This document shows, piece by piece, positions 2,025 through 21,652 of a stretch of 22,885 nt of DNA. Location: assembly GCA_965649055.1 (NCBI GenBank), contig CBFGJG010000033.1, positions 1 through 22,885 of the forward strand, read 5' to 3'. The first letter of the stretch is position 1, and every line of letters starts with the position of its first letter. A program made the position numbers and the translations under genes. The stretch comes from a candidate division WOR-3 bacterium (lineage in GTDB: Bacteria > Hydrothermota > UBA3072 > B12-G15). The notes under the pieces are model-generated. The model was not told the DNA's origin, did no database searches, and saw only the letters and a list, made by a program, of their open reading frames with translations.

Positions 2025-2709
2025 AGATATATTTTTTTATCTCATCAGGAGATTTTATCCTGAAAAATTTTATATCCTTTGGGATAAAAACATCCGTTTC
2101 ATCAGTTAAAAACATTGTAACATCCAATCCTCCAAGATATGCCTTTGCAGCTAACTCATTTTTTATAGTATAAAGATGACCTATTTTTTCAATATCTTCT
2201 TCACTTTTGATTTCAATCCATCCTTTCGGTAAATCAGTTTTTATTTCATAAATCCCTTTATTTTTTCTTTTTGTATGTATCCTTTTTATTTTCTTATTCT
2301 CTCCAAGCATACCAAGAACAAAATTTAAATTCCAGATAATATCACCCTTTAATAATATTTCTGATTTTTTCACTTCAGAGAAAGATATTTTTTTTTCAGG
2401 ATTAAATATTTTATTAAAAATATGATTATAATCAGTTATATCGATTGATAAATCAAATTTTAGATTTCTTAAATCTCTTTTAATACCTATTAGTTTTAAA
2501 AAATTTATTTTTTGTGGAATGGTTATTATCTTTACATTATCAAAAGAGTTTATACAATTATTTGTATCATATCCCAAGATTGTTAAATTAAATCTTTCTT
2601 TTAGAATATCAATAAATGGTTTTAGAATTGTTGCTTCAAAAATATGAGAAGGTGGATATATTATTATTTCTTTTATGTTTTCAATCTTTCCGTTTTTAAT
2701 TTTTATCAT
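1999..2709 (-). CDS. Short, degenerate GT9 (heptosyltransferase)-like protein
   Basis: IIIYPPSHIFEATILKPFIDILKERF and LRNLKFDLSIDI resemble the WaaC/WaaF N-terminal domain. It is only 236 aa and the canonical motifs are altered. It overlaps both neighbours, consistent with translational coupling. Confidence 0.5.
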   Translation of the reverse strand: MIKIKNGKIENIKEIIIYPPSHIFEATILKPFIDILKERFNLTILGYDTNNCINSFDNVKIITIPQKINFLKLIGIKRDLRNLKFDLSIDITDYNHIFNKIFNPEKKISFSEVKKSEILLKGDIIWNLNFVLGMLGENKKIKRIHTKRKNKGIYEIKTDLPKGWIEIKSEEDIEKIGHLYTIKNELAAKAYLGGLDVTMFLTDETDVFIPKDIKFFRIKSPDEIKKYIYEDTPYLI

Positions 2710-4217
2710 TTTTTTATTAATATGTATGTCTCGGGTGGGGAGGATTTATAGAATACAAGATATTTATCAGGTTCTTTCATTATCACAGGGATGAGATATC
2801 TTCTTGTTGTTCCTGTCCAGTAAAATGCATCAACAACTATATAATCAGCCTTATTTATGCTTTCTAATATCTTATTTTCGTCATTTATAAACGGATAACA
2901 AAAAGCCTTTCTTTCACTTGCAAGATAGAAAAGTTCAGGTTTCCGAACAAGGAATTTTGCATTTTGAGGTGTATGTTTTCTTGCATATTCAGCAGTCTCA
3001 TAAAATCTTATATAATCAGCTGTATAACCACTATACCTGTTCCCTTGAATATATCCTGAAAGCATTTGAAGATTCTTTAATGAAGAAGGTATCAGATTTA
3101 TAATTGCAGAAGTTATAAAAATTGAAGATGTAATATAGAAAAGCAAATCTCCCTTTATCCCCACTTTCTTTTTTATCCAATCAATAAGAATAAAAAAGAA
3201 GAAAAAAATAAGCGGGAGTAATGGAAGCAGGAATCTATCACTGCTCCATACAGAAGGCCATATAAGGCATAATCCAAAGAAAAAAACAAAATAAATAATA
3301 AAAAGTAAATTTTTCTTATTAAAACCTGTAATTAAACCTGATAGAATTAAAGATAAAAGAATCACACCTGAAATTATATAAATTGGATTGAATTTTATAT
3401 TTATTAGGAATGGGAAGAAAAAACGTGGATTAACTTCAAATAGATAAATCACAAGATTCTGTCCTATTCTTACCAGAAAATCCTTAAATGTTATTGTCCC
3501 TAAAGATAAATCATACATATTTTTTGCAAAAAGCTGTGTTTTGTATCCACCTTCACCACCAATCCTGCTACCCCTTATTATCCATGGTGTTATAATAATG
3601 ATAACAATAATTGAATAAAAAATCAAATCCCTGTATCTTTTGTTAAGAAGAAGGAATAGAAATATAGCAGCGACTAAAGTTATTCCTGCTGTTCTTAAAT
3701 AATAAGGGAATGTGCTTAATATCGAGATAATAAATAATATTTTCAAATTCCATTTCCTTGAATAGATATCACAGAGGTATAATGTGAGAAAAGAGAAAAA
3801 AATAAATGGTATCTCTGTGAGTATCCTGTGTGAATATTCAATGTATGTTGGATTTAGAGCAATTAAAAGGAGTAAAGAATAGAATAAAAATCCCTTTAAT
3901 CTGTTTTTAAATAACAGATAGAATATAAAGAGAGATAATGTTGAAAAGATAATATTTAATATCTTAAAAGGAACTGCATTTTTAATATTTGTAAATAAAA
4001 GTGGAATGGATAAGATAAGAGGATAACCAGGTGGATACTGTGTATGTAAAGGTTCATCAGGCTTATATATATCTCTGTAACCCTTAGATGTTATTAAAGA
4101 TTTTGCAAGTGAAAGGTATATTGCATTATCACCACCGGTATCATGTTTAGGGTCAAACAATAAAATACAAAAAACAATATGTAAAGAAAGTATAATTATT
4201 AAAATCTTGTCTTTCAT
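2706..4217 (-). CDS. GT-C fold membrane glycosyltransferase (ArnT/PMT-like, GT39/GT83-like)
   Basis: About 11-13 hydrophobic helices; acidic GGDNAIY after TM1; YPPGYP; ILTEIPF; YLRTAG; short soluble C-terminal domain. Confidence 0.85.
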   Translation of the reverse strand: MKDKILIIILSLHIVFCILLFDPKHDTGGDNAIYLSLAKSLITSKGYRDIYKPDEPLHTQYPPGYPLILSIPLLFTNIKNAVPFKILNIIFSTLSLFIFYLLFKNRLKGFLFYSLLLLIALNPTYIEYSHRILTEIPFIFFSFLTLYLCDIYSRKWNLKILFIISILSTFPYYLRTAGITLVAAIFLFLLLNKRYRDLIFYSIIVIIIITPWIIRGSRIGGEGGYKTQLFAKNMYDLSLGTITFKDFLVRIGQNLVIYLFEVNPRFFFPFLINIKFNPIYIISGVILLSLILSGLITGFNKKNLLFIIYFVFFFGLCLIWPSVWSSDRFLLPLLPLIFFFFFILIDWIKKKVGIKGDLLFYITSSIFITSAIINLIPSSLKNLQMLSGYIQGNRYSGYTADYIRFYETAEYARKHTPQNAKFLVRKPELFYLASERKAFCYPFINDENKILESINKADYIVVDAFYWTGTTRRYLIPVIMKEPDKYLVFYKSSPPETYILIKK

Positions 4218-4295: not shown

Positions 4296-4814
4296 ATGAA
4301 AATTAGATATTCCTATATTTCTTTATCATTATTTTTCATTTTGTTAATATTTTTTCATTTTTTCCCATTCAGTTTTAAAAACAGAATTAAAGATAATTAC
4401 AAATCCGATGAATATTTCAGATTGGGAATTAAAAATATGAATGAAAAAGAAAAAAGCAATGGTATATTTTATTTAAAAGAAACAATAAGGATACAGCCAG
4501 AGTATGCCTTAAACCACTTCTATCTTGGATATTTCCTGTATTTATATGGTGATGTTGATAGCTCAGTAGTTTATTTTAAGAATTGTATTGAAAAAGACCC
4601 CGAATTTTATGATGCTTATTTTTTGCTTGGTAGGATTCTTTGTGAAAAGGGCAAGTTAAGAGAAGGTATCTCGTATCTTGAATCTGCAATTCAACTTAAT
4701 CCGTATTATTTAAATGCATATAAAGAACTTGGAAAATATTTTTTAAAAATAGGCAATCTCGAAGGTTTTAAAGAGGTTCAAAGGAGGATAGATTTACTTG
4801 AAGATAAAAGATAG
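4296..4814 (+). CDS. Membrane-anchored tetratricopeptide repeat protein
   Basis: N-terminal hydrophobic helix followed by 3-4 TPRs (YFRLG...IRIQPEYALNHFYLG...IEKDPEFYDAYFLLG...AIQLNPYYLNAYKELG). Confidence 0.9.
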   Translation: MKIRYSYISLSLFFILLIFFHFFPFSFKNRIKDNYKSDEYFRLGIKNMNEKEKSNGIFYLKETIRIQPEYALNHFYLGYFLYLYGDVDSSVVYFKNCIEKDPEFYDAYFLLGRILCEKGKLREGISYLESAIQLNPYYLNAYKELGKYFLKIGNLEGFKEVQRRIDLLEDKR

Positions 4815-6624
4815 TTTGATTATCATTTCATTGTTTATTTTTCTTTCAGGGGTTAAGTTCCTAAAGGTCTTTAATTCCAAAGGTTTTAATTATAGGGATG
4901 ATACTGGAGTTTACTGGACTGAATCAGCATTTCAGTATAAGATTGCAAAAGAGATTTCCAAAGGAAATTCACTTGAAGATTTTGATAAAAATGCACAATA
5001 CCCTGAAAGATACGGGATTAAAAAAAACATAACAATATTAATGATGTCTATTTCAGGAATTCTTTACAGATTCTTCATTCCAAAAAATATTCCGTTTTTG
5101 CTTTTTCTTACAATATTTATGTGTTTATATTCGTCTTTATCAGTATTCCCACTCTATTTTTTATCTTATGAAATTTACAGAGATAGAAATATTTCTATTC
5201 TTTTAACCTTACTATATTCAGTCTCCCTTTCTTCATATATTACGATTATAAATCTCGGATATGAATTTCAGGATTTTGCAGTCCCATTTATTTTTCTTCA
5301 TCTTTATTTTTTCATTAAAAGCATAAGAACAGATAAATTTATTTATGCATTTTTTTCTGGAATATTTCTTTTAATCGCTCTACTATCCTGGCTTTTGACT
5401 ATATTCTATTTTGTCCTTTTTGTTTTAATCTTGATTATAATTAATTTAATTTATAAAGAATTTAATATTTATCCTTTTTTTATAATTGTTTTAATATTAA
5501 GTATTGGTTCTTTCATATTTCCTGTATTAAGATCAGCAGGTTTTATATATTCTTTACCTATGCTTATCTCATATTCATTCACAGGATACTATTTTCTTCC
5601 TAAAAAAAAGATAATAAGAATCATTTCGCCATTTTTATTCGCACTCATTATAGGAATTATAACAATTTTTGTATCTAAATATAGAATAACAGGTTATGGT
5701 GTTGTTTACAAACTCATAATAGACAGAATAAAAGTCCTTTTTAATTTAGTAAAAAGGGAAGAACTTTCTTATGAAACACTTGTTATGTGGGTCTCCCCAT
5801 TCAGTTCACCATCTTTTAATATGGTTATTCACTCACTTGGTGTTTTGACAATTACAGGTATTTCTGGTTCATTTATTTTATTTGTTGATTTTTTAAAAAA
5901 GAAGGAAAATGTTTTCTTAATACTATCGTATTTTACATTTCTCTTTTTTATACTTTATCTTTTCTTTATAAGGATGGATGTATTCCTTGTTTTCTTCCTT
6001 TCTATCTCTTCAGGAATTCTTTTCAGATTCAAAAAGAAGATTATCTATCCTGTTTTTGTATTTTCAATAATTATCAATCTTTTTTTATTTTTATCATATC
6101 CTTCCGGCTCGAAGGCACCTGAAAGGACTTATCTTATAGATGTCTTAAAGTATATAAGGAATAACACGGAAGAAAACGAACCAATCCTTTCTTTATTCCC
6201 TTTGAGTGCAACAATCCTTGCTTACACAGATAGACCAATAATAGTTCATCCGAAATTTGAGGTTGAGGGAATAATAAAGAAGAATAAGGAATTTGAGATG
6301 TGTTTATTCTTTGAGGAAGAAAGCCTTTATAATTTCTGTAAGAAAAATGGTGCAAGGTATTTTATTTATCAAACTGATATACTTTTATCAGTAAAGAAGG
6401 AATCAGTAAGATACAGAACTCATAATTTTAAAATCGGAAAAGAAAATGTTGCATACAAGATGCATTTCAGGCCTCAAGAACTTAAACATTTCCAGCTATT
6501 ATTCTCAAATCCACATTACAGGGTTTATAAAGTTCAGGAAAATGCTGATTTCAATATAAATTTAGTATATTTAAGAATATACGATGAAAACAGGATAAAA
6601 CTTGAAGATTTCAATATCTATTAA
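4798..6624 (+). CDS. GT-C glycosyltransferase of the STT3/DPY19 superfamily, DPY19-like
   Basis: TTG start with AAGGAGG at 4781-4787, overlapping the TPR gene. About 13 TM segments plus a soluble C-terminal domain (YIRNNTEENEPILS...RPIIVHPKFE...GARYFI). There is no WWDYG motif. Confidence 0.75.
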   Translation: MKIKDSLIIISLFIFLSGVKFLKVFNSKGFNYRDDTGVYWTESAFQYKIAKEISKGNSLEDFDKNAQYPERYGIKKNITILMMSISGILYRFFIPKNIPFLLFLTIFMCLYSSLSVFPLYFLSYEIYRDRNISILLTLLYSVSLSSYITIINLGYEFQDFAVPFIFLHLYFFIKSIRTDKFIYAFFSGIFLLIALLSWLLTIFYFVLFVLILIIINLIYKEFNIYPFFIIVLILSIGSFIFPVLRSAGFIYSLPMLISYSFTGYYFLPKKKIIRIISPFLFALIIGIITIFVSKYRITGYGVVYKLIIDRIKVLFNLVKREELSYETLVMWVSPFSSPSFNMVIHSLGVLTITGISGSFILFVDFLKKKENVFLILSYFTFLFFILYLFFIRMDVFLVFFLSISSGILFRFKKKIIYPVFVFSIIINLFLFLSYPSGSKAPERTYLIDVLKYIRNNTEENEPILSLFPLSATILAYTDRPIIVHPKFEVEGIIKKNKEFEMCLFFEEESLYNFCKKNGARYFIYQTDILLSVKKESVRYRTHNFKIGKENVAYKMHFRPQELKHFQLLFSNPHYRVYKVQENADFNINLVYLRIYDENRIKLEDFNIY

Positions 6625-6633
6625 GGAGGTTTT

Positions 6634-7371
6634 ATGGTATGGTTATTTACTCTAATAAGTGTTATAATCGTAAGCATTGTATCATTTATTGGTATTTTAT
6701 TTGTATTAGCAAAAAATCTTGATAAACTTATATTGATTTTAATCAGTTTTGCAGCAGGTGCATTGATAGGTGATGCATTTATACATCTTATACCTGAAAG
6801 TGTGGAAGAGATAAGTAATATCAGGGTATTCTCTGTTTTGGTTATTTCAGGGATTTTGTTATTCTTTATACTCGAAAAATTTCTATGCTGGAGGCATTGC
6901 CATATACCTACATCAGAAAAACATCCACATCCACTGGCATTTATAAATATAATTGGAGATGGTCTTCACAATTTTATGGATGGTTTAATAATAGGTGCAA
7001 GCTATAGCGTGAATACAATGATAGGTTTAACAACAACCATAGCGGTTATACTCCATGAGATACCACAGGAGATAGGAGATTTTGGGGTTCTGATTTTTGC
7101 AGGGATGAAAAGGAAAAAGGCATTGATATTTAATTTTCTTTCCGCACTAACTGCAATTCTTGGGGCAATAGTTTCACTTATAATAGGACCGAATGTAAAA
7201 AATTATTCAATATATCTTATGCCTATAACAGCAGGTGGCTTTATTTATATTGCCTGTTCAGACCTTATTCCAAGACTTCAGGGATGGCAATTATTAAAAA
7301 CTGTTATAATTCAGTTTTTTGCAATGATAATGGGAATCCTTTTAATGTTTTTTCTTGCCTGTATAGGATGA
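6634..7371 (+). CDS. ZIP family divalent metal transporter (LIV-1-like HExPxEIGD type)
   Basis: GDAFIHLIPE, His-rich loop WRHCHIP..KHPH, GDGLHNFMDG, HEIPQEIGDF. GGAGG SD at 6625-6629. Confidence 0.93.
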   Translation: MVWLFTLISVIIVSIVSFIGILFVLAKNLDKLILILISFAAGALIGDAFIHLIPESVEEISNIRVFSVLVISGILLFFILEKFLCWRHCHIPTSEKHPHPLAFINIIGDGLHNFMDGLIIGASYSVNTMIGLTTTIAVILHEIPQEIGDFGVLIFAGMKRKKALIFNFLSALTAILGAIVSLIIGPNVKNYSIYLMPITAGGFIYIACSDLIPRLQGWQLLKTVIIQFFAMIMGILLMFFLACIG

Positions 7372-10727: not shown

Positions 10728-12200
10728 TTATATCCTGTTATATATTTTAGTAAGTTTTAAAAGATTATCTGAGATTCTTTTTTCAAAATTTCCGTTGAAT
10801 CTCCATCGCCAGTTACCTTCATTTTTCCCCGGTATATTCATCCTTGCACCCGAATCAAGGTTGAAAATATCCTGTAATGGAATTATTGAATATCTTGAGA
10901 CTGACATCATAGCAAGCCTTATAAAAACCCAGTTTACAAATTCTTCTTTTACCTTGTATCCAACATAATAGTTTAGATTTTCCTTCTCTTCATCTGTTGC
11001 ATTTTTAAACCATCCTCTTACAGTATCAGTATCATGTGTTCCGGTATATACAACTGAATTCTCTATATGATTGTGTAGAACATATGGATTTTTTGATATA
11101 TCACCACCGAATGCAAATACAAGAACCTTCATACTCAAAAATCCAAAATCCTTTATTAATTCTCTAACATCAGGTGTTATAATTCCAAGGTCTTCTGCAA
11201 TCACTGGAATATTAGGATAGAAAAGTAAAACTTTTTTGAACAATTCTTCACCTGGACCTTTTTCCCAATGACCATTTATTGCTGTTTTTTCTCCATAAGG
11301 GATTTCCCAGAAACCACAGAATCCTCTGAAATGGTCTATCCTTATAAAATCAAAGTTTTTCAAATAAAAACCTATCCTTTTTATCCACCAATCATAATTT
11401 CTTTCTTTTAACCTTTCCCAGTTATAAACAGGATTACCCCATAGCTGCCCGGTATTGCTGAAATAATCAGGTGGAACACCAGAAACAAATATTGGTCTAA
11501 GATTATGGTCAAGTTTAAAGATATCCGGATTTGCCCATACATCCGGACTATCAAAACTTACATATATAGGTAAATCACCTATTATCTGAATTCCTTTTTC
11601 ATTGCAGTATCTTTTTAATTTGCTCCATTGTTTATAAAAAATATACTGGAAGAATTTATGTTTCTCTATTTCTTTTTTCAATTCATTGTTATAATAATTT
11701 ATGGTATCTGGATTTCTTCTTTTAAGACCATCTTCCCAATCACACCATACACTTCCATTATATCTTTCTTTAAGTGCACAGAATAATGCAAAATCTTCAA
11801 GCCAGAAATTATTCTCTTCACAGAAATTTTCGTATTCCTGATTTATCTTAAATCTTTCAAATGCCTTTTCTAATATTTCTCTTTTAAATCTATAAACATT
11901 GTTGTAATCTACATAATCTTTATTTTCATCATTAAATGAAATTTCATCTTCTCTTAAAAATCCATCCTGAATTAGTAATTCAGGTGATATGAAAATTGTA
12001 TTCCCGGCAAATGTTGAGTAATTATTGTAAGGTGAGTTACCAAACTCGTTCAAGGTAGGATTTACCGGTAATATTTGCCATAGTGTCTGTCCGGATGATA
12101 GAAGAAAATCTGCAAATCTGTATGCAGAATATCCTAAATCACCTATTCCAAATTCTGATGGAAGTGAACTTATATGCATTAGTATACCTGATTTTCTCAT
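10728..12200 (-). CDS. malQ: 4-alpha-glucanotransferase (amylomaltase, GH77)
   Basis: RKSGILMHISSLP, GVPPDYFSNTGQLWGNP, RIDHFRG, IAEDLG, YTGTHD, RMNIPG, NWRWR. ATGA overlap with the upstream gene. Confidence 0.97.
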   Translation of the reverse strand: MRKSGILMHISSLPSEFGIGDLGYSAYRFADFLLSSGQTLWQILPVNPTLNEFGNSPYNNYSTFAGNTIFISPELLIQDGFLREDEISFNDENKDYVDYNNVYRFKREILEKAFERFKINQEYENFCEENNFWLEDFALFCALKERYNGSVWCDWEDGLKRRNPDTINYYNNELKKEIEKHKFFQYIFYKQWSKLKRYCNEKGIQIIGDLPIYVSFDSPDVWANPDIFKLDHNLRPIFVSGVPPDYFSNTGQLWGNPVYNWERLKERNYDWWIKRIGFYLKNFDFIRIDHFRGFCGFWEIPYGEKTAINGHWEKGPGEELFKKVLLFYPNIPVIAEDLGIITPDVRELIKDFGFLSMKVLVFAFGGDISKNPYVLHNHIENSVVYTGTHDTDTVRGWFKNATDEEKENLNYYVGYKVKEEFVNWVFIRLAMMSVSRYSIIPLQDIFNLDSGARMNIPGKNEGNWRWRFNGNFEKRISDNLLKLTKIYNRI

Positions 12201-14608
12201 TCTTCCTCCAGATGAACATAAAGGTAATCCATAAGTGTTTCAAATATGTTTATCCAATTTTTGGCATCTTCTTCGCCTTTATCTGCCTTTTCAGATTTCT
12301 CCTTATAGTATTTTTCACCAAGATAAAAATATAGATTCTGGGCCTTCCAAAGGTTTAATTCAATATTATATTTTTTAGCAACCTTCAAGAATCCTTCTAT
12401 CTTTGAAAGAATCTCTATATTATCCGGGGTTTCCATAAGGCTATTAAACAGATTATTTACAGTATCGGTTAACAAAAATCCTAATTTTATTCTATCTATC
12501 TTTACAGACATCCTTTTTAATTCTTCAAGGATTCCATCTAACATTGAAGGGTCTGAATTTAACCTTATAGCGTCATTTGCCTTAGAATTCAGAACATATT
12601 CAATTGTATCCTGGATTATCTTCGGGAAAGGTGTCTTTGTTTCAAACAAGAAATTAAGAATCCCTGAATTTTTTTCATAAAATTCAATCAAAGAAAACCT
12701 GATTTCTTTGTATGTTTCCATCAGTATTGTATCAATTATCTTTCTCTGTTCATCTTTAAAAAGATTAAGTAATGAATAAGTGTGTTCATTGAATACTGTA
12801 TCAATTTCTCTTATAAGATTTGTAATCTCTCCTTTTTTGAATATATCAGCAAGTTTTTTTACTTTAAAATAATTTTCATTAGAATTTTCTATTATTCCGC
12901 ATAATACATTCTGATCTCCAAGATGTAAAACTGCATATATAAAATCTTTGAATTCATCGGTTCTTTTAGATTTTATCTTTATCTCTCCAATTCTTAACCT
13001 CATACTTCCTGAGAAATGGTCCTCTGATGTGAATGATTCAATTTCGTAGCAGTATAATTCTTTATTAGATTCCTGATTAAATATATTTGAAATAACAAAA
13101 TGTGCCGCTACCTTTTCAAGATTAAGTGCATTAGGAATAACAAAATTTCTGTAAATGAACTCACCATCCTTTAATTCGTTTATGTTACTTTTTGCATCTT
13201 TCAACATATTAATGAATATTTCTTCTATTCTTCCACCATTCAATTCCTCAGCAAGCTGAATTGCCCTTTTTGCGTACATCAATATCTGCTGTGTCTCTAT
13301 GTTTGAAATATCATCAAAGAACCATCCACAACTTGTGAACATCAGATTTCCCATCCTTTCCATCTCGAGAATCTTCAGGATTTTTATTCTTTCTTCATTA
13401 TTTATTTCCTTCTTTTTATATTTTGATATCAGTTCTTCAAATTTTACATTATTCATAAATAAGTCTATGTAATCATTCAACAAATCCTTTGGATTATTAA
13501 CAAATTCTATAATCTTCTCATTGTAAATCTTATCAATCTCGTCTTTTAGATAATCAAGTGCATTTCTTAAAGGTTTTCTCCATTTCTGATTCCAGCCAGG
13601 ATGAGAACCTGTATTACAGCCGCAATCATCCTTCCATCTTTCTATACCATGTGAACAGCTCCAGGATGTATTCTCTATTATCTTCACTTCATATTCAGGG
13701 GGAAATTTGTTCAGAAATTCTGAATAGTTTGTTAGTTTTGCTATCTTTTTTTCTTCAATGTAGTTCAGGCAATAGGATAAAGCCATATCTCCATATTTAT
13801 GGTGATGTCCATAGGTTTCACCATCAGTAGCAATATTAACAATCTGAGGTTCATTTGCATTTGAGAAGGATGAAAGCAATCTTTTAGCAAAATTTTCTCC
13901 GTTCTTCAATAATCCACCAAATGCAACATCGTGTGATATATCTTTATCGTAGAAAAATATAGAAATAGTCCTGTCATCAGGTAATATACAGAGATAAGGT
14001 CTCCTTGTATCTATTTTGCCACCTGAAACATCTATCCATCTTTCTTCGCCTATCTTCCTTATCATTTTAGCCTGATACGGTGAAAGTATAGTGAATCTTA
14101 TCCCATTCTCAGCAAGTATACATAACGTCTCTATATCAACAGCAGTCTCTGGTAGCCACATTCCTAAAGGCAATCTTTTAAATCTATTGTAGAAATCTTT
14201 TATTCCCCATTTAACCTGTGTTATTTTTACTTCCTTCTTTGAAAGCGGCATTATTATATGGTTATAACATTGTGCAATGGCAGAGCCAAAACCACTAAAG
14301 TTTTTTCTTGATTCATAATCTGATTCAATTATCTTATTATATAAATCATTCCTTTTTTTCTCCATCCAGGATAAAAGCGTAGGTCCGAAATTGAAACTTA
14401 TTTTTGTATAGTTGTTCAATATATCTATAATTTTCCCTTTATCATTCAAAATCCTTGAAGCAGTATTTGCCTCATAACATTCTGCTGTTATCCTTTCATT
14501 CCAGTCATGGTATGGATAAGCAGAATCCTGTATCTGGATATCTTCAAGCCAGGGATTCTCCCTTGGCGGCTGATAAAAATGTGCATGAATACATATATAT
14601 CTTTCCAT
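12197..14608 (-). CDS. Glycoside hydrolase family 57 with DUF3536 C-terminal domain
   Basis: HAHFYQPPRENPW, SFNFGPTLLSW, GMWLPETAVD (nucleophile Glu), ATDGETYGHH (acid/base Asp), SWSCSHGIERW, MFTSCGWFFDD. Confidence 0.92.
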   Translation of the reverse strand: MERYICIHAHFYQPPRENPWLEDIQIQDSAYPYHDWNERITAECYEANTASRILNDKGKIIDILNNYTKISFNFGPTLLSWMEKKRNDLYNKIIESDYESRKNFSGFGSAIAQCYNHIIMPLSKKEVKITQVKWGIKDFYNRFKRLPLGMWLPETAVDIETLCILAENGIRFTILSPYQAKMIRKIGEERWIDVSGGKIDTRRPYLCILPDDRTISIFFYDKDISHDVAFGGLLKNGENFAKRLLSSFSNANEPQIVNIATDGETYGHHHKYGDMALSYCLNYIEEKKIAKLTNYSEFLNKFPPEYEVKIIENTSWSCSHGIERWKDDCGCNTGSHPGWNQKWRKPLRNALDYLKDEIDKIYNEKIIEFVNNPKDLLNDYIDLFMNNVKFEELISKYKKKEINNEERIKILKILEMERMGNLMFTSCGWFFDDISNIETQQILMYAKRAIQLAEELNGGRIEEIFINMLKDAKSNINELKDGEFIYRNFVIPNALNLEKVAAHFVISNIFNQESNKELYCYEIESFTSEDHFSGSMRLRIGEIKIKSKRTDEFKDFIYAVLHLGDQNVLCGIIENSNENYFKVKKLADIFKKGEITNLIREIDTVFNEHTYSLLNLFKDEQRKIIDTILMETYKEIRFSLIEFYEKNSGILNFLFETKTPFPKIIQDTIEYVLNSKANDAIRLNSDPSMLDGILEELKRMSVKIDRIKLGFLLTDTVNNLFNSLMETPDNIEILSKIEGFLKVAKKYNIELNLWKAQNLYFYLGEKYYKEKSEKADKGEEDAKNWINIFETLMDYLYVHLEEE

Positions 14609-17392: not shown

Positions 17393-18703
17393 TTAATGGA
17401 TTATAATTATCTTCTTAATTTCATTATCTGTTTCTAAAATATAAATTCCTGAAGGAACATTTCCTATAAATATCTTACCTCGTCTACCTCTTATTTCCTT
17501 AACTATTTTACCTGTAATATCATATATCTTACAGTATCTTTTAACATCTATTTCTAATGTCTCAGAATATATTATTATTGATTCTTTCTTAATATCTTCA
17601 GGAACAAATGATGGATTATACTCTGAAATATAATAAATATCTATATTGTGATAATCCGGATAATGACCGCTAAAAATAAGATGAACCTTCCCTATACTAT
17701 CAAGTAGAACATTATTACGTATAGTGAAATTTACATAATCTCGTGGTATTGTCTCACAAACCCAAGAGTTCTCTATTTTTGCATAGTCTAATATATTTGT
17801 TTCAGTTAATGTTGTATCTACACTCCCAAGAATATGGGGTATGTGGTGTCCATCGGTATATACCTGTAAATAAATAAGTTTACTTTTTATCTCTTCCACT
17901 TCATCAAATGGATACTTACTGAAACAAATTGCTATTGAAACTCCTTTTTTGTTTTGCCACTTTTCCCTCCAAGCAACAATTGGAATATCCTCATTATCAA
18001 GATTAATTGTATATGCACAACTATTAGGGTAAAATCTATTTTCCCTTGATATTTTCTTTGGAGTTGACCAGACACCATTTACTCTCATTGAAAAATACAA
18101 ATGATAATAACCCATTGCATCCCTATTTAACCAGATAACATATACTATTCCATTCTTGCATTTTATTACCGGATAATAATTTGCTATTGGAATATTTGAA
18201 ATTAGTTCAGGTGTTGACCATTGATTATTCTTTTTAACAGAATAATATAATCCACCATCGTTATAATCATCAAATACTATATGAACATAAGAACTCTCAT
18301 CAATTGCTATGTTAGGTGTTGAACAGGGATGTAAAAATGAATCTGATAAATTTACAGGTCCTATCCATTGTGAACCATTATGAAACATATAATATATCCT
18401 ACCAGAAGTTGTTCCCATAAGCCTGCAGAATATAATATGTGGATTACCAAGTGTATCAACTGCTATCTTTGCATCCTGAAGTCCATAACCAGTTGTTGGG
18501 TGAAAAATTATCCTTCCTGAATCCGGCCATATACCATTCGTAGTCCTTGTATACCAGAGAAAACAGGAATCGTCATCAGGTCTTGTAGCATATACAACAT
18601 GTTTCTCTGAATACCTATCAATTGCTGCATGAGGATATTGAACCGGTAATTCACTATTTGAAATATTTAGTGGTATTGTCCAGTAAAAGAATAAAAAACT
18701 CAT
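17393..18703 (-). CDS. Secreted beta-repeat (propeller-like) protein with T9SS type A-like C-terminal domain
   Basis: Repeats of IAVD..G.PHI.F/W...IYY....G.WS.P..IS; C-terminal KIYDITGKIV...VPSGIYIL...KKIIIIH. GGAGG SD at 18712-18708. Confidence 0.75.
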   Translation of the reverse strand: MSFLFFYWTIPLNISNSELPVQYPHAAIDRYSEKHVVYATRPDDDSCFLWYTRTTNGIWPDSGRIIFHPTTGYGLQDAKIAVDTLGNPHIIFCRLMGTTSGRIYYMFHNGSQWIGPVNLSDSFLHPCSTPNIAIDESSYVHIVFDDYNDGGLYYSVKKNNQWSTPELISNIPIANYYPVIKCKNGIVYVIWLNRDAMGYYHLYFSMRVNGVWSTPKKISRENRFYPNSCAYTINLDNEDIPIVAWREKWQNKKGVSIAICFSKYPFDEVEEIKSKLIYLQVYTDGHHIPHILGSVDTTLTETNILDYAKIENSWVCETIPRDYVNFTIRNNVLLDSIGKVHLIFSGHYPDYHNIDIYYISEYNPSFVPEDIKKESIIIYSETLEIDVKRYCKIYDITGKIVKEIRGRRGKIFIGNVPSGIYILETDNEIKKIIIIH

Positions 18704-18714
18704 AAAACCTCCAG

Positions 18715-18741
18715 TAAGGTAGGGGGTTTCCCCCTACCTTA
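18715..18741. other. Perfect 12-bp hairpin spanning the peptidase stop codon
   Basis: TAAGGTAGGGGG (18715-18726), TTT loop, CCCCCTACCTTA (18730-18741). On the minus strand it is followed by CTGGAGG rather than a U-tract. Confidence 0.8.
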
Positions 18742-21652
18742 TTACTGTTATTTTGAAGATCTTTTCTTTGTTTATCCTCATTATGTATATTCCCGCAGGA
18801 AGTTCTTTTATCATCATCTCTCCTTCCACAACCCCTTCTTTTATTTTCCTTCCCTGAATATCAAATAATTCTATTTCACTTCTTAGATTATCTTTATTAA
18901 GAATTATCCTATCAAACACTACATTGCTTACAGGTTGAACATCTCTTTCTTCAATCCCAAATTTTTCAAAATCAAATATACTTGAACTCGCGTCATTCTT
19001 TATTATCCCAATAAGCCCCATCGTTACCTTCGCGTTCCCTTTTATCTTTATTATCCTTTCTCCATTAAACTTTTTCACCTTGTAAATCGAAACACCATTA
19101 CAAATAGTCTTAGATTCTTCATTTAAAAGTTCTTCGTCAAGATATATATTCCCTTTTTTCTCAGGTGTCCAGTAAACAATGTATTTTGCATTCTCCATAT
19201 TTATATTATATAATAAACTATCGCCAAAGTCAAGTGCTATACCTTCCTCTGTCCTTATTATACTTTCTCTCCAAACAACATCAGATGAACCCCCTATTTT
19301 CAATGGTTCAATAATAATACCTATTGCATAAATGACATTTGATGCAGGACCTTCCTGGTTTAACATATCATAACAGGTAACATAATAATAATGTTCTGAA
19401 CCAGATTGAACCCTGTGTGTATAATTTGAATTCCTTGTCTTTCCTAATAGTTCCCAGGCACCATTCGGAACCCTATGATAAACATTATATGCAACCCTAT
19501 CCTGTTCTGTATTATCATTCCAGTCAAGATTGATATTCACAACACCAGGTCTATAAGGCGTAACATTATAAGTTAATCCTGTTGGTGCATCAGGAGCAAG
19601 TCCATCATCCCATCCAATAAATGTATTATTTCCTATATTACCGATATCTGAATATTGTGGATGTTCAGGTGGTTTTATATACTCATAACAATTTCCTCCA
19701 CTACAATAATATAACTTTCTTCTGAATTTCTGACTGTCAAATGTATCCACATAATCATATACTTCTTTCATTGAGATAAGATAATCATTATAACCAGAAG
19801 GTCCTATATATGTGCTTCCATAAGGTGTTTCTCTCCTTACAACATTCATTGCATGGAATGAGAATTCTCCATGCGGGACTGTATCCGTTCCTATTATTTC
19901 ATTTTCAGAGCCATAAACCACATAATTTTCCCAGTTCTCTATAGGATTTGGGTCTCTCTGCCATTGATTTATATTATACCAAGGAATATCATCTGCCCTC
20001 CATGCTAATTCTGTCCCACTTGCAGATGTTAATATAACAGTGTTATCTGATGAAAGGTCATCTATAAAACCACCACTATAACATTGTTGCATCCAGTAAA
20101 CTTTCTTACCTGCATTTACATTACTGAATTTCTCAGAAAAATCCTCATCACTTATCACATAATCTAATAGACAGAGATATGAATTATCACCATTTGAACC
20201 AAGACCTGAAAGGAATAGATAATTACCCTGTTTTGCTAACCCACTTATATATGCACCTTCAGGCTGATAATGTGAAACCAGAGATGGTAAATATGGATTT
20301 GAAACATCTACAATATAAACACCACCATCATATCCCGCAACGAAAAGATAATTCCCATATTTCTTAATCTCCATAGTATAGCATCCTTCAAGTAATATCT
20401 CTGATATTTCAGATAAAAGCTCGTCTCTGTAAAGAACCTTTAAAAAACCATCTCCACCTGCGTAAAGATAAAAACTATCTACTTCTACATCAAAAATTGG
20501 AGGAGAAAAATTAAAATATGAAACTTGTTCAGGTTCAGATATGCTAATAACCCCAATAAAGCCTGAAGAAACTGATTGGGGAATTGCTAAATAACAAGTA
20601 TCAGTTGTCGTCCCTCTTCTTACTCCAATCATAGGCCTATTTGTTTTATTAAAATATATAGAAGATATTTGTTGTGGATCTCCTGGATTGGAAATATCAT
20701 ATATTTTTAGGTACGAGTATCCCCCTGAAACTGCATAAAGTCTATTTCCACATATCTCAAAATCCGTTATCTGATTTTGATTATCTGTATCAACAACATA
20801 TGGTGCATCTGGATTACTTATATTCACGGTCTTTAAACCACTATTATTTAGACCAACATAAGCATAATTTCCTGAAACTTCAATAGAGAATGCATTTTCT
20901 CCTAAACCAAAATCAAGAACACCTCTTTCAACAAGTTCATCAGGATTTGTAGCATCTGTTATTGTGAGAAATCCTTTAAATCCATTTCCCATTGAAACTG
21001 TATAAACATAATTACCTTGAACTTCTATCTGGTAGCCAAAGATATTTGGGAACGAATAGCTAAGAGGCTGTGGACTGTTTAAGTTAGTAATATCAACAGA
21101 GTGTGTTGTCCAACCTGCTGTTCCGTGGTCATGTGTTAATACATAAAGATAATCATCCTCATCCATTGGTTCATAACCATAATTTTCATCACCTTCTGAT
21201 AGATACCTTATAAGCGAATCAAGCCCTTCTTTTGTAGCCTTTAAAGGAAGACCATCCGTGATTTTGTCACCACTCCATCCTTGGAGCCAATGATTTTCTG
21301 CCTTATATCTTATCCAGTTACATTCTTCATCCTGTCCATGTCCATACAAAACAAATATATGGTCTGTTAAAGCATCATTCCCATATAAAGAGAATTTTTG
21401 ATAATACCAAAGTAATTCCCAGTAAAGATATGCATCAGTCCAGAATTCCCAATATTCACTTGTTCCCTTTGAACCTTCAGTTGTATCAAGATTTATTACT
21501 TCCTTTAAAAACTCACCATTATACAATGGAAGTATATTTCCATCTTTCTTAAAACCACTAACAGAATTTGATATCACAACACCTATGTTATTCCTTATCC
21601 CAAATAATGAGATAGAAATAAATATTAAGATCAAAATCAACATTTTTTTCAT
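18734..21652 (-). CDS. Secreted clan CD (legumain/C13-like) cysteine peptidase with inserted LVIVD beta-propeller, FN3 domain and T9SS-like C-terminal domain
   Basis: Signal peptide; EFWTD...HIFVLYGHG; YLYVLTHDHG (His176); YWMQQCYSGGFIDDL (Cys524); VILTSA..E.AW; 7 LVIVD-type repeats at aa ~181-484; FN3 (APDAPTGL..LDWNDNTE..AYNVY..YYYVTCYD); tail ELFDIQGRKI..LPAGIYIMRI..KITVIR. AAAGGAGG SD. Confidence 0.85.
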   Translation of the reverse strand: MKKMLILILIFISISLFGIRNNIGVVISNSVSGFKKDGNILPLYNGEFLKEVINLDTTEGSKGTSEYWEFWTDAYLYWELLWYYQKFSLYGNDALTDHIFVLYGHGQDEECNWIRYKAENHWLQGWSGDKITDGLPLKATKEGLDSLIRYLSEGDENYGYEPMDEDDYLYVLTHDHGTAGWTTHSVDITNLNSPQPLSYSFPNIFGYQIEVQGNYVYTVSMGNGFKGFLTITDATNPDELVERGVLDFGLGENAFSIEVSGNYAYVGLNNSGLKTVNISNPDAPYVVDTDNQNQITDFEICGNRLYAVSGGYSYLKIYDISNPGDPQQISSIYFNKTNRPMIGVRRGTTTDTCYLAIPQSVSSGFIGVISISEPEQVSYFNFSPPIFDVEVDSFYLYAGGDGFLKVLYRDELLSEISEILLEGCYTMEIKKYGNYLFVAGYDGGVYIVDVSNPYLPSLVSHYQPEGAYISGLAKQGNYLFLSGLGSNGDNSYLCLLDYVISDEDFSEKFSNVNAGKKVYWMQQCYSGGFIDDLSSDNTVILTSASGTELAWRADDIPWYNINQWQRDPNPIENWENYVVYGSENEIIGTDTVPHGEFSFHAMNVVRRETPYGSTYIGPSGYNDYLISMKEVYDYVDTFDSQKFRRKLYYCSGGNCYEYIKPPEHPQYSDIGNIGNNTFIGWDDGLAPDAPTGLTYNVTPYRPGVVNINLDWNDNTEQDRVAYNVYHRVPNGAWELLGKTRNSNYTHRVQSGSEHYYYVTCYDMLNQEGPASNVIYAIGIIIEPLKIGGSSDVVWRESIIRTEEGIALDFGDSLLYNINMENAKYIVYWTPEKKGNIYLDEELLNEESKTICNGVSIYKVKKFNGERIIKIKGNAKVTMGLIGIIKNDASSSIFDFEKFGIEERDVQPVSNVVFDRIILNKDNLRSEIELFDIQGRKIKEGVVEGEMMIKELPAGIYIMRINKEKIFKITVIR

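Follow-up and report, generated by a model that had tools for sequence, protein, structure and literature searches.

A large bacterial family of DPY19-like enzymes includes a subclade with an altered active site

We analyzed a stretch of 22,885 nucleotides (nt) from a candidate division WOR-3 bacterium (GenBank assembly GCA_965649055.1, contig CBFGJG010000033.1, positions 1 to 22,885), here called the window. One of its genes (4798-6624, + strand) is a real open reading frame (ORF), uninterrupted over 608 codons, and encodes a predicted GT-C enzyme with a multi-pass membrane domain and a C-terminal extracytoplasmic alpha/beta dome. Judged by sequence profile, its closest characterized family is DPY19 (Pfam PF10034), which includes DPY19L1-4 and Caenorhabditis elegans DPY-19 (CeDPY19; PDB 7ZLG/H/I/J). 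The protein belongs to a large bacterial family for which we found no published study. It appears to work like DPY19 in its core and probably performs a variant of DPY19 chemistry. We tentatively propose, at a probability of about 0.38, that it is a non-canonical tryptophan (Trp) C-glycosyltransferase for exported proteins, with a sequon other than WxxW and altered donor activation.

DPY19 is the closest characterized family by sequence profile

A phmmer search covering 1.84 billion representatives found homologs in 738 clusters at E ≤ 0.001 and in 232 at 1e-30. The best 150 of the 738 clusters were aligned (A2, on which all family counts out of 150 rest), as were a 50-member subset of shorter proteins (A3) and 105 proteins for folding (A4). 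The A3 profile matched CeDPY19 at 101.6 bits (E = 3e-28) versus 75.5 bits for the best STT3 chain; PglB and AglB chains were undetected by it at E ≤ 1. With the broader A2 profile STT3 again scored lower: DPY19 reached 118.6 bits, and no STT3 was among the best 60 matches, down to 91 bits. A single Firestonebacteria member searched alone gave 33.6 bits (E = 2e-7) for CeDPY19 versus 23.8 for STT3. Pfam Dpy19 was matched by 41 of 50 members, and Pfam STT3 by three of 50, weakly. DPY19 kinship had been recognized in an earlier reading of this DNA, made from its letters alone (the original prediction), and these profiles bear it out.

The window's protein is itself a weak match. Against Pfam Dpy19 it scored 12 bits (E 0.059) with hmmscan and 29.8 bits in a genome search (curated cut-off, 27.2), and the match extends to the last position of the model, at residue 579. 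Its relatives reach 80 to 102 bits. Searched singly, it had no NCBIfam match, no Pfam STT3 match at E ≤ 1, no Pfam TMEM260 or PMT match, and, by phmmer against PDB sequences, no DPY19 match and nothing else meaningful. The source genome (G000, 94% complete) has no Pfam STT3 match at E ≤ 0.001. Pfam Dpy19 matched none of 14 control genomes, including four archaea with STT3 hits.

The structure is predicted with confidence (predicted local distance difference test, pLDDT, 94.4; predicted TM-score, pTM, 0.93) and has the STT3/DPY19-type GT-C fold with a luminal dome. The original prediction had described an STT3-like topology without the STT3 motif WWDYG, and both points hold: the motif is absent from its equivalent position (residues 465-470; 6190-6207, + strand), and WWD occurs in 0 of 150 members. 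CeDPY19 had the best Foldseek TM-score (0.76) and the best combination of root-mean-square deviation and aligned length (3.0 Å over 565 residues). VIA-align Z scores, however, tied: yeast Stt3 30.5, then 30.1, AglB 29.9, and CeDPY19 29.7, within an overall range of 28 to 30 for STT3/AglB (Pfam PF02516). The fold was thus rejected as a discriminator; sequence separates DPY19 from STT3, and fold does not. Motifs, together with lower Z scores for PglB (22), Pmt (19), and ArnT (17), rule out membership in the AglB/PglB, ArnT, PMT, and Aft/Emb groups.

Named family members come from WOR-3/Stahlbacteria, Firestonebacteria, and Kiritimatiellia (for the last, one of ten sampled clusters had a taxon). 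One relative, 67% identical, has the UniRef label WOR, and relatives at 40 to 43% identity are Ca. Stahlbacteria. All 61 members of the matching ESM Atlas cluster are bacterial, with Planctomycetota commonest among the 22 of known phylum. Within the host phylum, 53 of 272 genomes have a match at E ≤ 0.001, 34 of them at E < 1e-60 and 19 weakly. A C-terminal extension, usually of tetratricopeptide repeats (TPRs), is present in 104 of 150 members.

The catalytic core is kept

Residue equivalences are taken from a HMMER alignment of the family profile to CeDPY19 chain 7zlg, with numbering checked against Bloch et al. (PMC10154233). At ~15% identity, the window's protein shares with CeDPY19 Glu71, Trp262, Phe401, Arg471, Pro576, Tyr578 (as Phe), and Glu579, as well as the lack of WWD. 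Glu42 (4921-4923, + strand, as for all residues below) corresponds to the catalytic Glu71 and is Glu in 136 and Asp in 7 of 150 members; it lies in the low-scoring first stretch of the alignment, and the single-sequence search with the Firestonebacteria member gave the same register. Trp198 (5389-5391; 148 of 150) is equivalent to Trp262, a phosphate/polyprenyl contact. The segment of external loop 5 (EL5) at residues 328-335 (5779-5802) contains Trp331, conserved in 149 of 150, and Phe335, equivalent to Phe401; HMMER places Tyr395, the peptide sensor of CeDPY19, one residue before Trp331. Arg392, the counterpart of the leaving-phosphate ligand Arg471, begins a short motif (5971-5982) that ends with Val395, the counterpart of Leu474.

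The sequence His484-Pro485-Lys486-Phe487-Glu488 (6247-6261) aligns with His575-Pro576-His577-Tyr578-Glu579, the indole-binding loop of DPY19. Glu488 is found in 142 of 150 members and an aromatic residue (Phe, Tyr, or Trp) at 487 in 139. A review (PMC8433626) reports Glu579 to be essential. Aligned STT3 chains have nothing equivalent to the HPx[FY]E loop; where the window's protein has HPKFE, they have a D-N-N/D-G-G loop. Seven core residues (E/D42, W198, W331, F/Y/W335, R392, F/Y/W487, and E/D488) occur together in 114 of 150 members. The motifs quoted in the original prediction all lie where it had placed them (E42 in WTESAFQY, RPIIVHPKFE at 479-488), and its correspondences for IRMDVF, RPIIVHPKFE, and E42 match the Arg471 motif, the His575-Glu579 loop, and Glu71 in the HMMER alignment.

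The phosphate clamp and the +3 pocket are probably altered

Three residues that matter to CeDPY19 are replaced, a change that the original prediction had missed. In EL2 (residues 149-159; 5242-5274), Arg211 has become Thr149 and Glu220 has become Gln158, followed by Asp159. The proposed pairing of QDF with RESF therefore holds for position only, since Gln158 takes the place of the essential Glu220 and Thr149, nine residues before it, that of the essential Arg211. In the +3 pocket, Asp394 replaces Lys473; Lys is found there in 0 of 150 members. R211A, E220A, and R471A each abolished CeDPY19 activity in the mutant results of PMC6801728. Further differences from CeDPY19 are Arg393 to Leu and Arg584 to Ile. 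Cys occurs only at positions 109, 502, and 514, with none in EL5, so there can be no disulfide between EL5 and the dome.

The first two positions covary strictly across the family. Arg149 and Glu158 are kept together in 119 of 150 members (hereafter Arg/Glu members): every Arg149 is accompanied by Glu158 (119/119), and Gln158 appears only where Arg149 is missing (20/20). The literal Rx6LRE motif is found in 10 of 150. The 14 members nearest the window's protein, with Thr or His at 149 and Gln at 158, have lost R149, R328 (Leu328 here; Arg or Lys in the family), and R493, which are kept by 119, 92, and 112 of the 119 Arg/Glu members, respectively. All 14 have gained E156 and D394, found in 10 and one of the 119. 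They have nonetheless kept E42, W198, W331, R392, H484, F487, and E488 in every case, and F335 in 12 of 14. In this Thr/Gln/Asp subclade, the active-site change is thus concerted.

Glu156 aligns with the first acid of the D-N-E metal motif of STT3A, at the position of the ligand Asp167; an acid in EL1 and an Arg in EL6 are also shared with STT3, AglB, and PglB. The EL2 Arg and D-x-[DE] metal motif of STT3 are otherwise absent, the window's protein having Thr149 and E156-F-Q158, that is, the first acid only. Because its residues differ from DPY19 at three diagnostic positions and also fail to match the STT3 motifs, we place the protein in neither family. The proposal of a DPY19-like C-glycosyltransferase thus stands as regards the catalytic Glu, the HPxxE loop, and the aromatic cage, but the enzyme is not canonical.

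The subclade is derived and has distinctive probable partners

A FastTree phylogeny of 150 family cores, rooted with four AglB sequences (566 columns; no eukaryotic DPY19 was included), places the window's protein in a 22-member clade with support 1.0, of which 21 lack the Arg211 equivalent. The base of the tree, which orders the bacterial family only, is weakly supported (0.665). Since this clade nests within the Arg/Glu-bearing family, loss of Arg and Glu is the derived state, and the evolutionary link between AglB and DPY19 suggested in the original prediction is not shown by this protein. Arg was also lost separately elsewhere in the tree: A2 members P0023, P0030, P0047, P0086, P0087, P0116, P0131, and P0135 represent separate lineages without the Arg211 equivalent, mostly changed at the Glu220 position as well. 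No UbiA gene adjoins the enzyme in the Arg211-loss loci outside the subclade that we examined (two types, L112 and L114).

Neighborhood counts are partly redundant and limited to loci with enough flanking sequence. In all 22 subclade loci, as against three of 49 Arg/Glu loci, the gene immediately upstream encodes a membrane-anchored TPR protein. In the window it encodes 172 residues with an N-terminal hydrophobic anchor and a Pfam TPR match (4296-4814, + strand), and its 3' end shares 17 nt with the enzyme ORF. A Shine-Dalgarno sequence, AGGAGG (4782-4787, + strand), lies within it, 10 nt before the TTG start codon of the enzyme, an arrangement that suggests translational coupling. A promoter scan was uninformative (19 sites versus 23.6 in shuffles). 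The separate TPR protein probably replaces the C-terminal TPR region fused in many relatives and, going by gene order, may bind the enzyme as its partner. TMTC1-4 and TMEM260 are GT-C protein O-mannosyltransferases with extracytoplasmic TPRs; they resemble the present system in having GT-C and TPR modules fused or adjacent, although they belong to distinct GT-C families. A TMEM260-like gene adjoins a member of the present family in one locus (L035).

The second partner is a UbiA-family gene. All but one of 21 subclade loci contain it, as against none of 41 Arg/Glu loci; with loci clustered at 60% identity, the counts are 7 of 8 and 0 of 23. Among the 272 genomes of the phylum, 10 have UbiA type 1 at E < 1e-60 (next best, 1e-20) and two have type 2. 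These are exactly the 12 genomes that carry the Thr/His/Ser+Gln form of the enzyme, and none of the other 260 has either type at these thresholds. In G000 itself, the gene is on a separate contig from the enzyme (C16:30094-30921, L067). The enzyme was confirmed to be of Arg/Glu type in 21 of the 22 other genomes with strong enzyme hits; the last holds a fragment too short to assign. None of these 22 has either UbiA at the same thresholds. Because the 12 genomes are kin (five families), UbiA and the enzyme are best regarded as one inherited module, not as 12 events.

Proposed function and alternatives

We favor Trp C-glycosylation because the system keeps the aromatic loop specific to DPY19, together with the catalytic Glu and a TPR module. 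The location of some Arg/Glu members between two exosortase genes also speaks for it. A membrane-embedded GT-C enzyme facing the extracytoplasmic side would take a single sugar from a polyprenyl-phosphate donor and attach it to a Trp side chain of exported proteins by DPY19-type electrophilic aromatic substitution. By analogy with CeDPY19, as set out in PMC10154233, the indole would pack among Trp331, Phe335, and Phe487, with its N1 on the carbonyl of Pro485. The leaving phosphate would be bound by Arg392 and Trp198, and Glu42 would remove the C2 proton. In the subclade, the +3 pocket for WxxW and half of the phosphate clamp would have been rebuilt. Since three Arg residues were lost and two carboxylates gained, positive charge would have to come from elsewhere, and candidate sources are a divalent metal, as in oligosaccharyltransferase (OST), a Lys or Arg close to the Trp that accepts the sugar, or a donor that carries an amino sugar. 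The anchored TPR protein may present unfolded clients, and the co-inherited UbiA would most simply supply a dedicated lipid carrier or donor. The donor sugar, acceptor, and metal use named here are all putative. For the Arg/Glu-bearing majority, Trp C-glycosylation is likelier than for the window's protein, and we consider it somewhat better than an even bet. Lys473 is lacking in all 150 members; therefore, even this majority probably differs from WxxW enzymes at +3.

Several results weigh against Trp C-glycosylation by the window's protein. They include the replacements of Arg211, Glu220, and Lys473, and the UbiA link, which is unexplained by any known protein C-glycosylation pathway. Besides the tied Z scores, the Foldseek row with the top E-value is an STT3A chain, a 17-member profile drawn mostly from the subclade gave a near tie (STT3A 55.4 versus DPY19 51 bits), and ESM features scored STT3-annotated bacterial clusters (0.98 to 0.99) above eukaryotic DPY19 clusters (0.96 to 0.97, from a different query). 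Nor do the sequons of the genome single out WxxW. We scanned 1794 ORFs of G000 at five offsets and 20 residues, sorted into crude hydropathy classes that included 324 predicted exported proteins. Exported proteins had 44 WxxW versus 31.7 expected, a weak excess equaled by WxxxW (43 versus 31.6), and WxxR showed no clear enrichment (67 versus 56.4). In predicted cytoplasmic proteins, WxxW occurs 31 times versus 31.5 expected. No Trp-sequon enrichment in G000 survives multiple testing; the top z, 3.5 for W-T, is raised in cytoplasmic proteins too.

The strongest rival, which we consider unlikely, is that the acceptor is a prenylated aromatic lipid (an indole, phenol, or quinol) that the co-inherited UbiA would make, giving a C- or O-glycolipid, with the cage and Glu kept and the peptide +3 pocket dropped. 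The match between UbiA and the subclade, exact across genomes and near-complete within loci, speaks for it. The UbiA profile is also nearer to AfUbiA (59.7 bits) than to the donor-making DPPR synthase (34 bits), and the cluster in genome G247 adds genes for a cis-prenyltransferase, a CruF-like hydratase, a geranylgeranyl-reductase-like protein, and an AglJ/DPM-like GT2 enzyme. However, the TPR partner is kept in all 22 subclade loci and the full dome is kept as well, two features that a protein client would explain more readily, and the 12 genomes form one subclade and are not independent events. The first Asp-rich motif of UbiA is altered (N-E for N-D, with the middle Asp missing), which leaves its chemistry uncertain; its predicted model has a pLDDT of 82. 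The CruF-like gene was rejected as a core part, with a strong match in one of 272 genomes (one of the 12 carriers).

Rather less likely is a metal-assisted protein glycosyltransferase resembling OST or PMT, whose acceptor (Tyr-OH, Trp N1, Ser/Thr, or Asn) would be more nucleophilic than the C2 atom of indole. Glu156 at the Asp167 position of STT3A is consistent with this, as is the lack of an STT3 match in G000, and the leaving group would be less activated without Arg211, a loss that should matter less to a heteroatom nucleophile. Yet Gln stands in place of the second metal ligand (Glu169/Asp156), the absence of WWD from all 150 members argues against N-x-S/T, and all subclade members keep the indole loop of DPY19.

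Canonical DPY19 activity, metal-independent mannosylation of WxxW or WxxC from polyprenyl-phosphate mannose, is improbable. Catalytic and cage residues are conserved, G000 has DPM-like GT2 genes, and 38 of the 324 predicted exported proteins carry WxxW. Against this, WxxC is not enriched in exported proteins (13 versus 14.0 expected), and such an acceptor is unlikely because Arg211 and Glu220 are missing and Lys473 is Asp.

We give least credence to a protein without catalytic activity that serves as a scaffold or binds lipid. In favor of this are the loss of two residues that CeDPY19 needs for activity and the Asn at position 42 of one G247 paralog, but Glu42, Trp198, Trp331, Arg392, His484, Phe487, and Glu488 are invariant in the subclade despite ~36 to 77% identity to the window's protein, and the replacements are fixed rather than scattered.

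Other features of the window and of related loci

Upstream of the TPR gene, the window has a divergent gene for a PMT_2-like GT-C protein of 503 residues (2706-4217, - strand), followed by a 236-residue ORF (1999-2709, -) and a GT4-like glycosyltransferase gene (966-2024, -). In the 67%-identical relative (L078), no such arrangement was observed next to the gene. Two exported proteins with weak matches to the Por secretion tail are encoded at 17393-18703 and 18734-21652 (both -) and are possible clients. The 972-residue one of the two has LVIVD repeats, a weak match to C13 peptidase, and one WxxW, at residue 68. A C25-peptidase gene lies upstream in 19 subclade loci and is absent beside the window's gene; we treat it as synteny.

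The G247 locus (L037, contig C64) has two tandem enzyme paralogs, each with a TPR gene upstream and one with the Asn at position 42 noted above. Three phosphodiesterase-family genes precede the paralogs, and the GT2, UbiA, cis-prenyltransferase, CruF-like, and reductase genes follow them. Genome G107 holds both forms of the enzyme, an Arg/Glu copy and a Thr/Gln copy (L165 and L010), which suggests that the two have different jobs. In a locus labeled Ca. Aminicenantes (L034), UbiA shares 93% identity with its counterpart in G226 (L160), from the window's own family; this points to mislabeling or recent transfer, and the locus was not counted as an independent phylum. A premature stop interrupts one copy of UbiA, and one gene of the Arg/Glu type is spread over two frames (L030:9853-10392; L167, G117).

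Arg/Glu members mostly have housekeeping neighbors. In about a dozen related loci (L130:2192-5389 to 9535), the gene follows genes for a secretin and a 5'-3' exonuclease and directly precedes coaE, after which come genes resembling rho, tig, and clpPX (named by eye). A short Arg/Glu member in L120 lies between two exosortase genes (5768-6727 and 11333-12313), near a sugar transferase gene; these neighbors are common to related loci. Beyond the family, an ESM Atlas cluster of 115 AglB/STT3-like proteins is 53% viral, mostly Uroviricota among the 19 of known phylum, and represents phage-borne oligosaccharyltransferase-like genes.

Significance

A passage of a 2026 review (PMC12990085) gives Trp C-mannosylation as restricted to metazoans and alveolates. 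In agreement with the original prediction, which knew of no characterized bacterial homolog, we found no paper on one in the open-access literature, a search that leaves most subscription papers, supplements, and the CAZy GT98 lists outside its scope. The homology is already visible in databases, because many family members bear automatic Pfam Dpy19 labels.

More broadly, we hypothesize, with confidence a little short of even, that a system for aromatic C-glycosylation exists in bacteria in its own right. The family, with several hundred clusters in uncultured phyla, would be the prokaryotic sister, and possibly the source, of eukaryotic DPY19, with an Arg/Glu majority that C-glycosylates Trp. 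In the window's subclade, a cationic active site would have been turned into an anionic one, and UbiA and the anchored TPR protein would have joined the enzyme in a pathway of three genes. Its product would be an undescribed C-glycoside, with either protein Trp (and a new lipid donor) or a prenylated aromatic lipid as the acceptor.

A widespread bacterial family with most of the DPY19 catalytic set bears directly on the origin of DPY19, and among its members there might be enzymes with which C-glycosylation could be carried out in a bacterial host. In addition, the family forms a natural mutagenesis series, as its strict Arg211/Glu220 covariation illustrates. The exchange of three Arg residues for two carboxylates in the subclade tests how C-C bond chemistry is activated.

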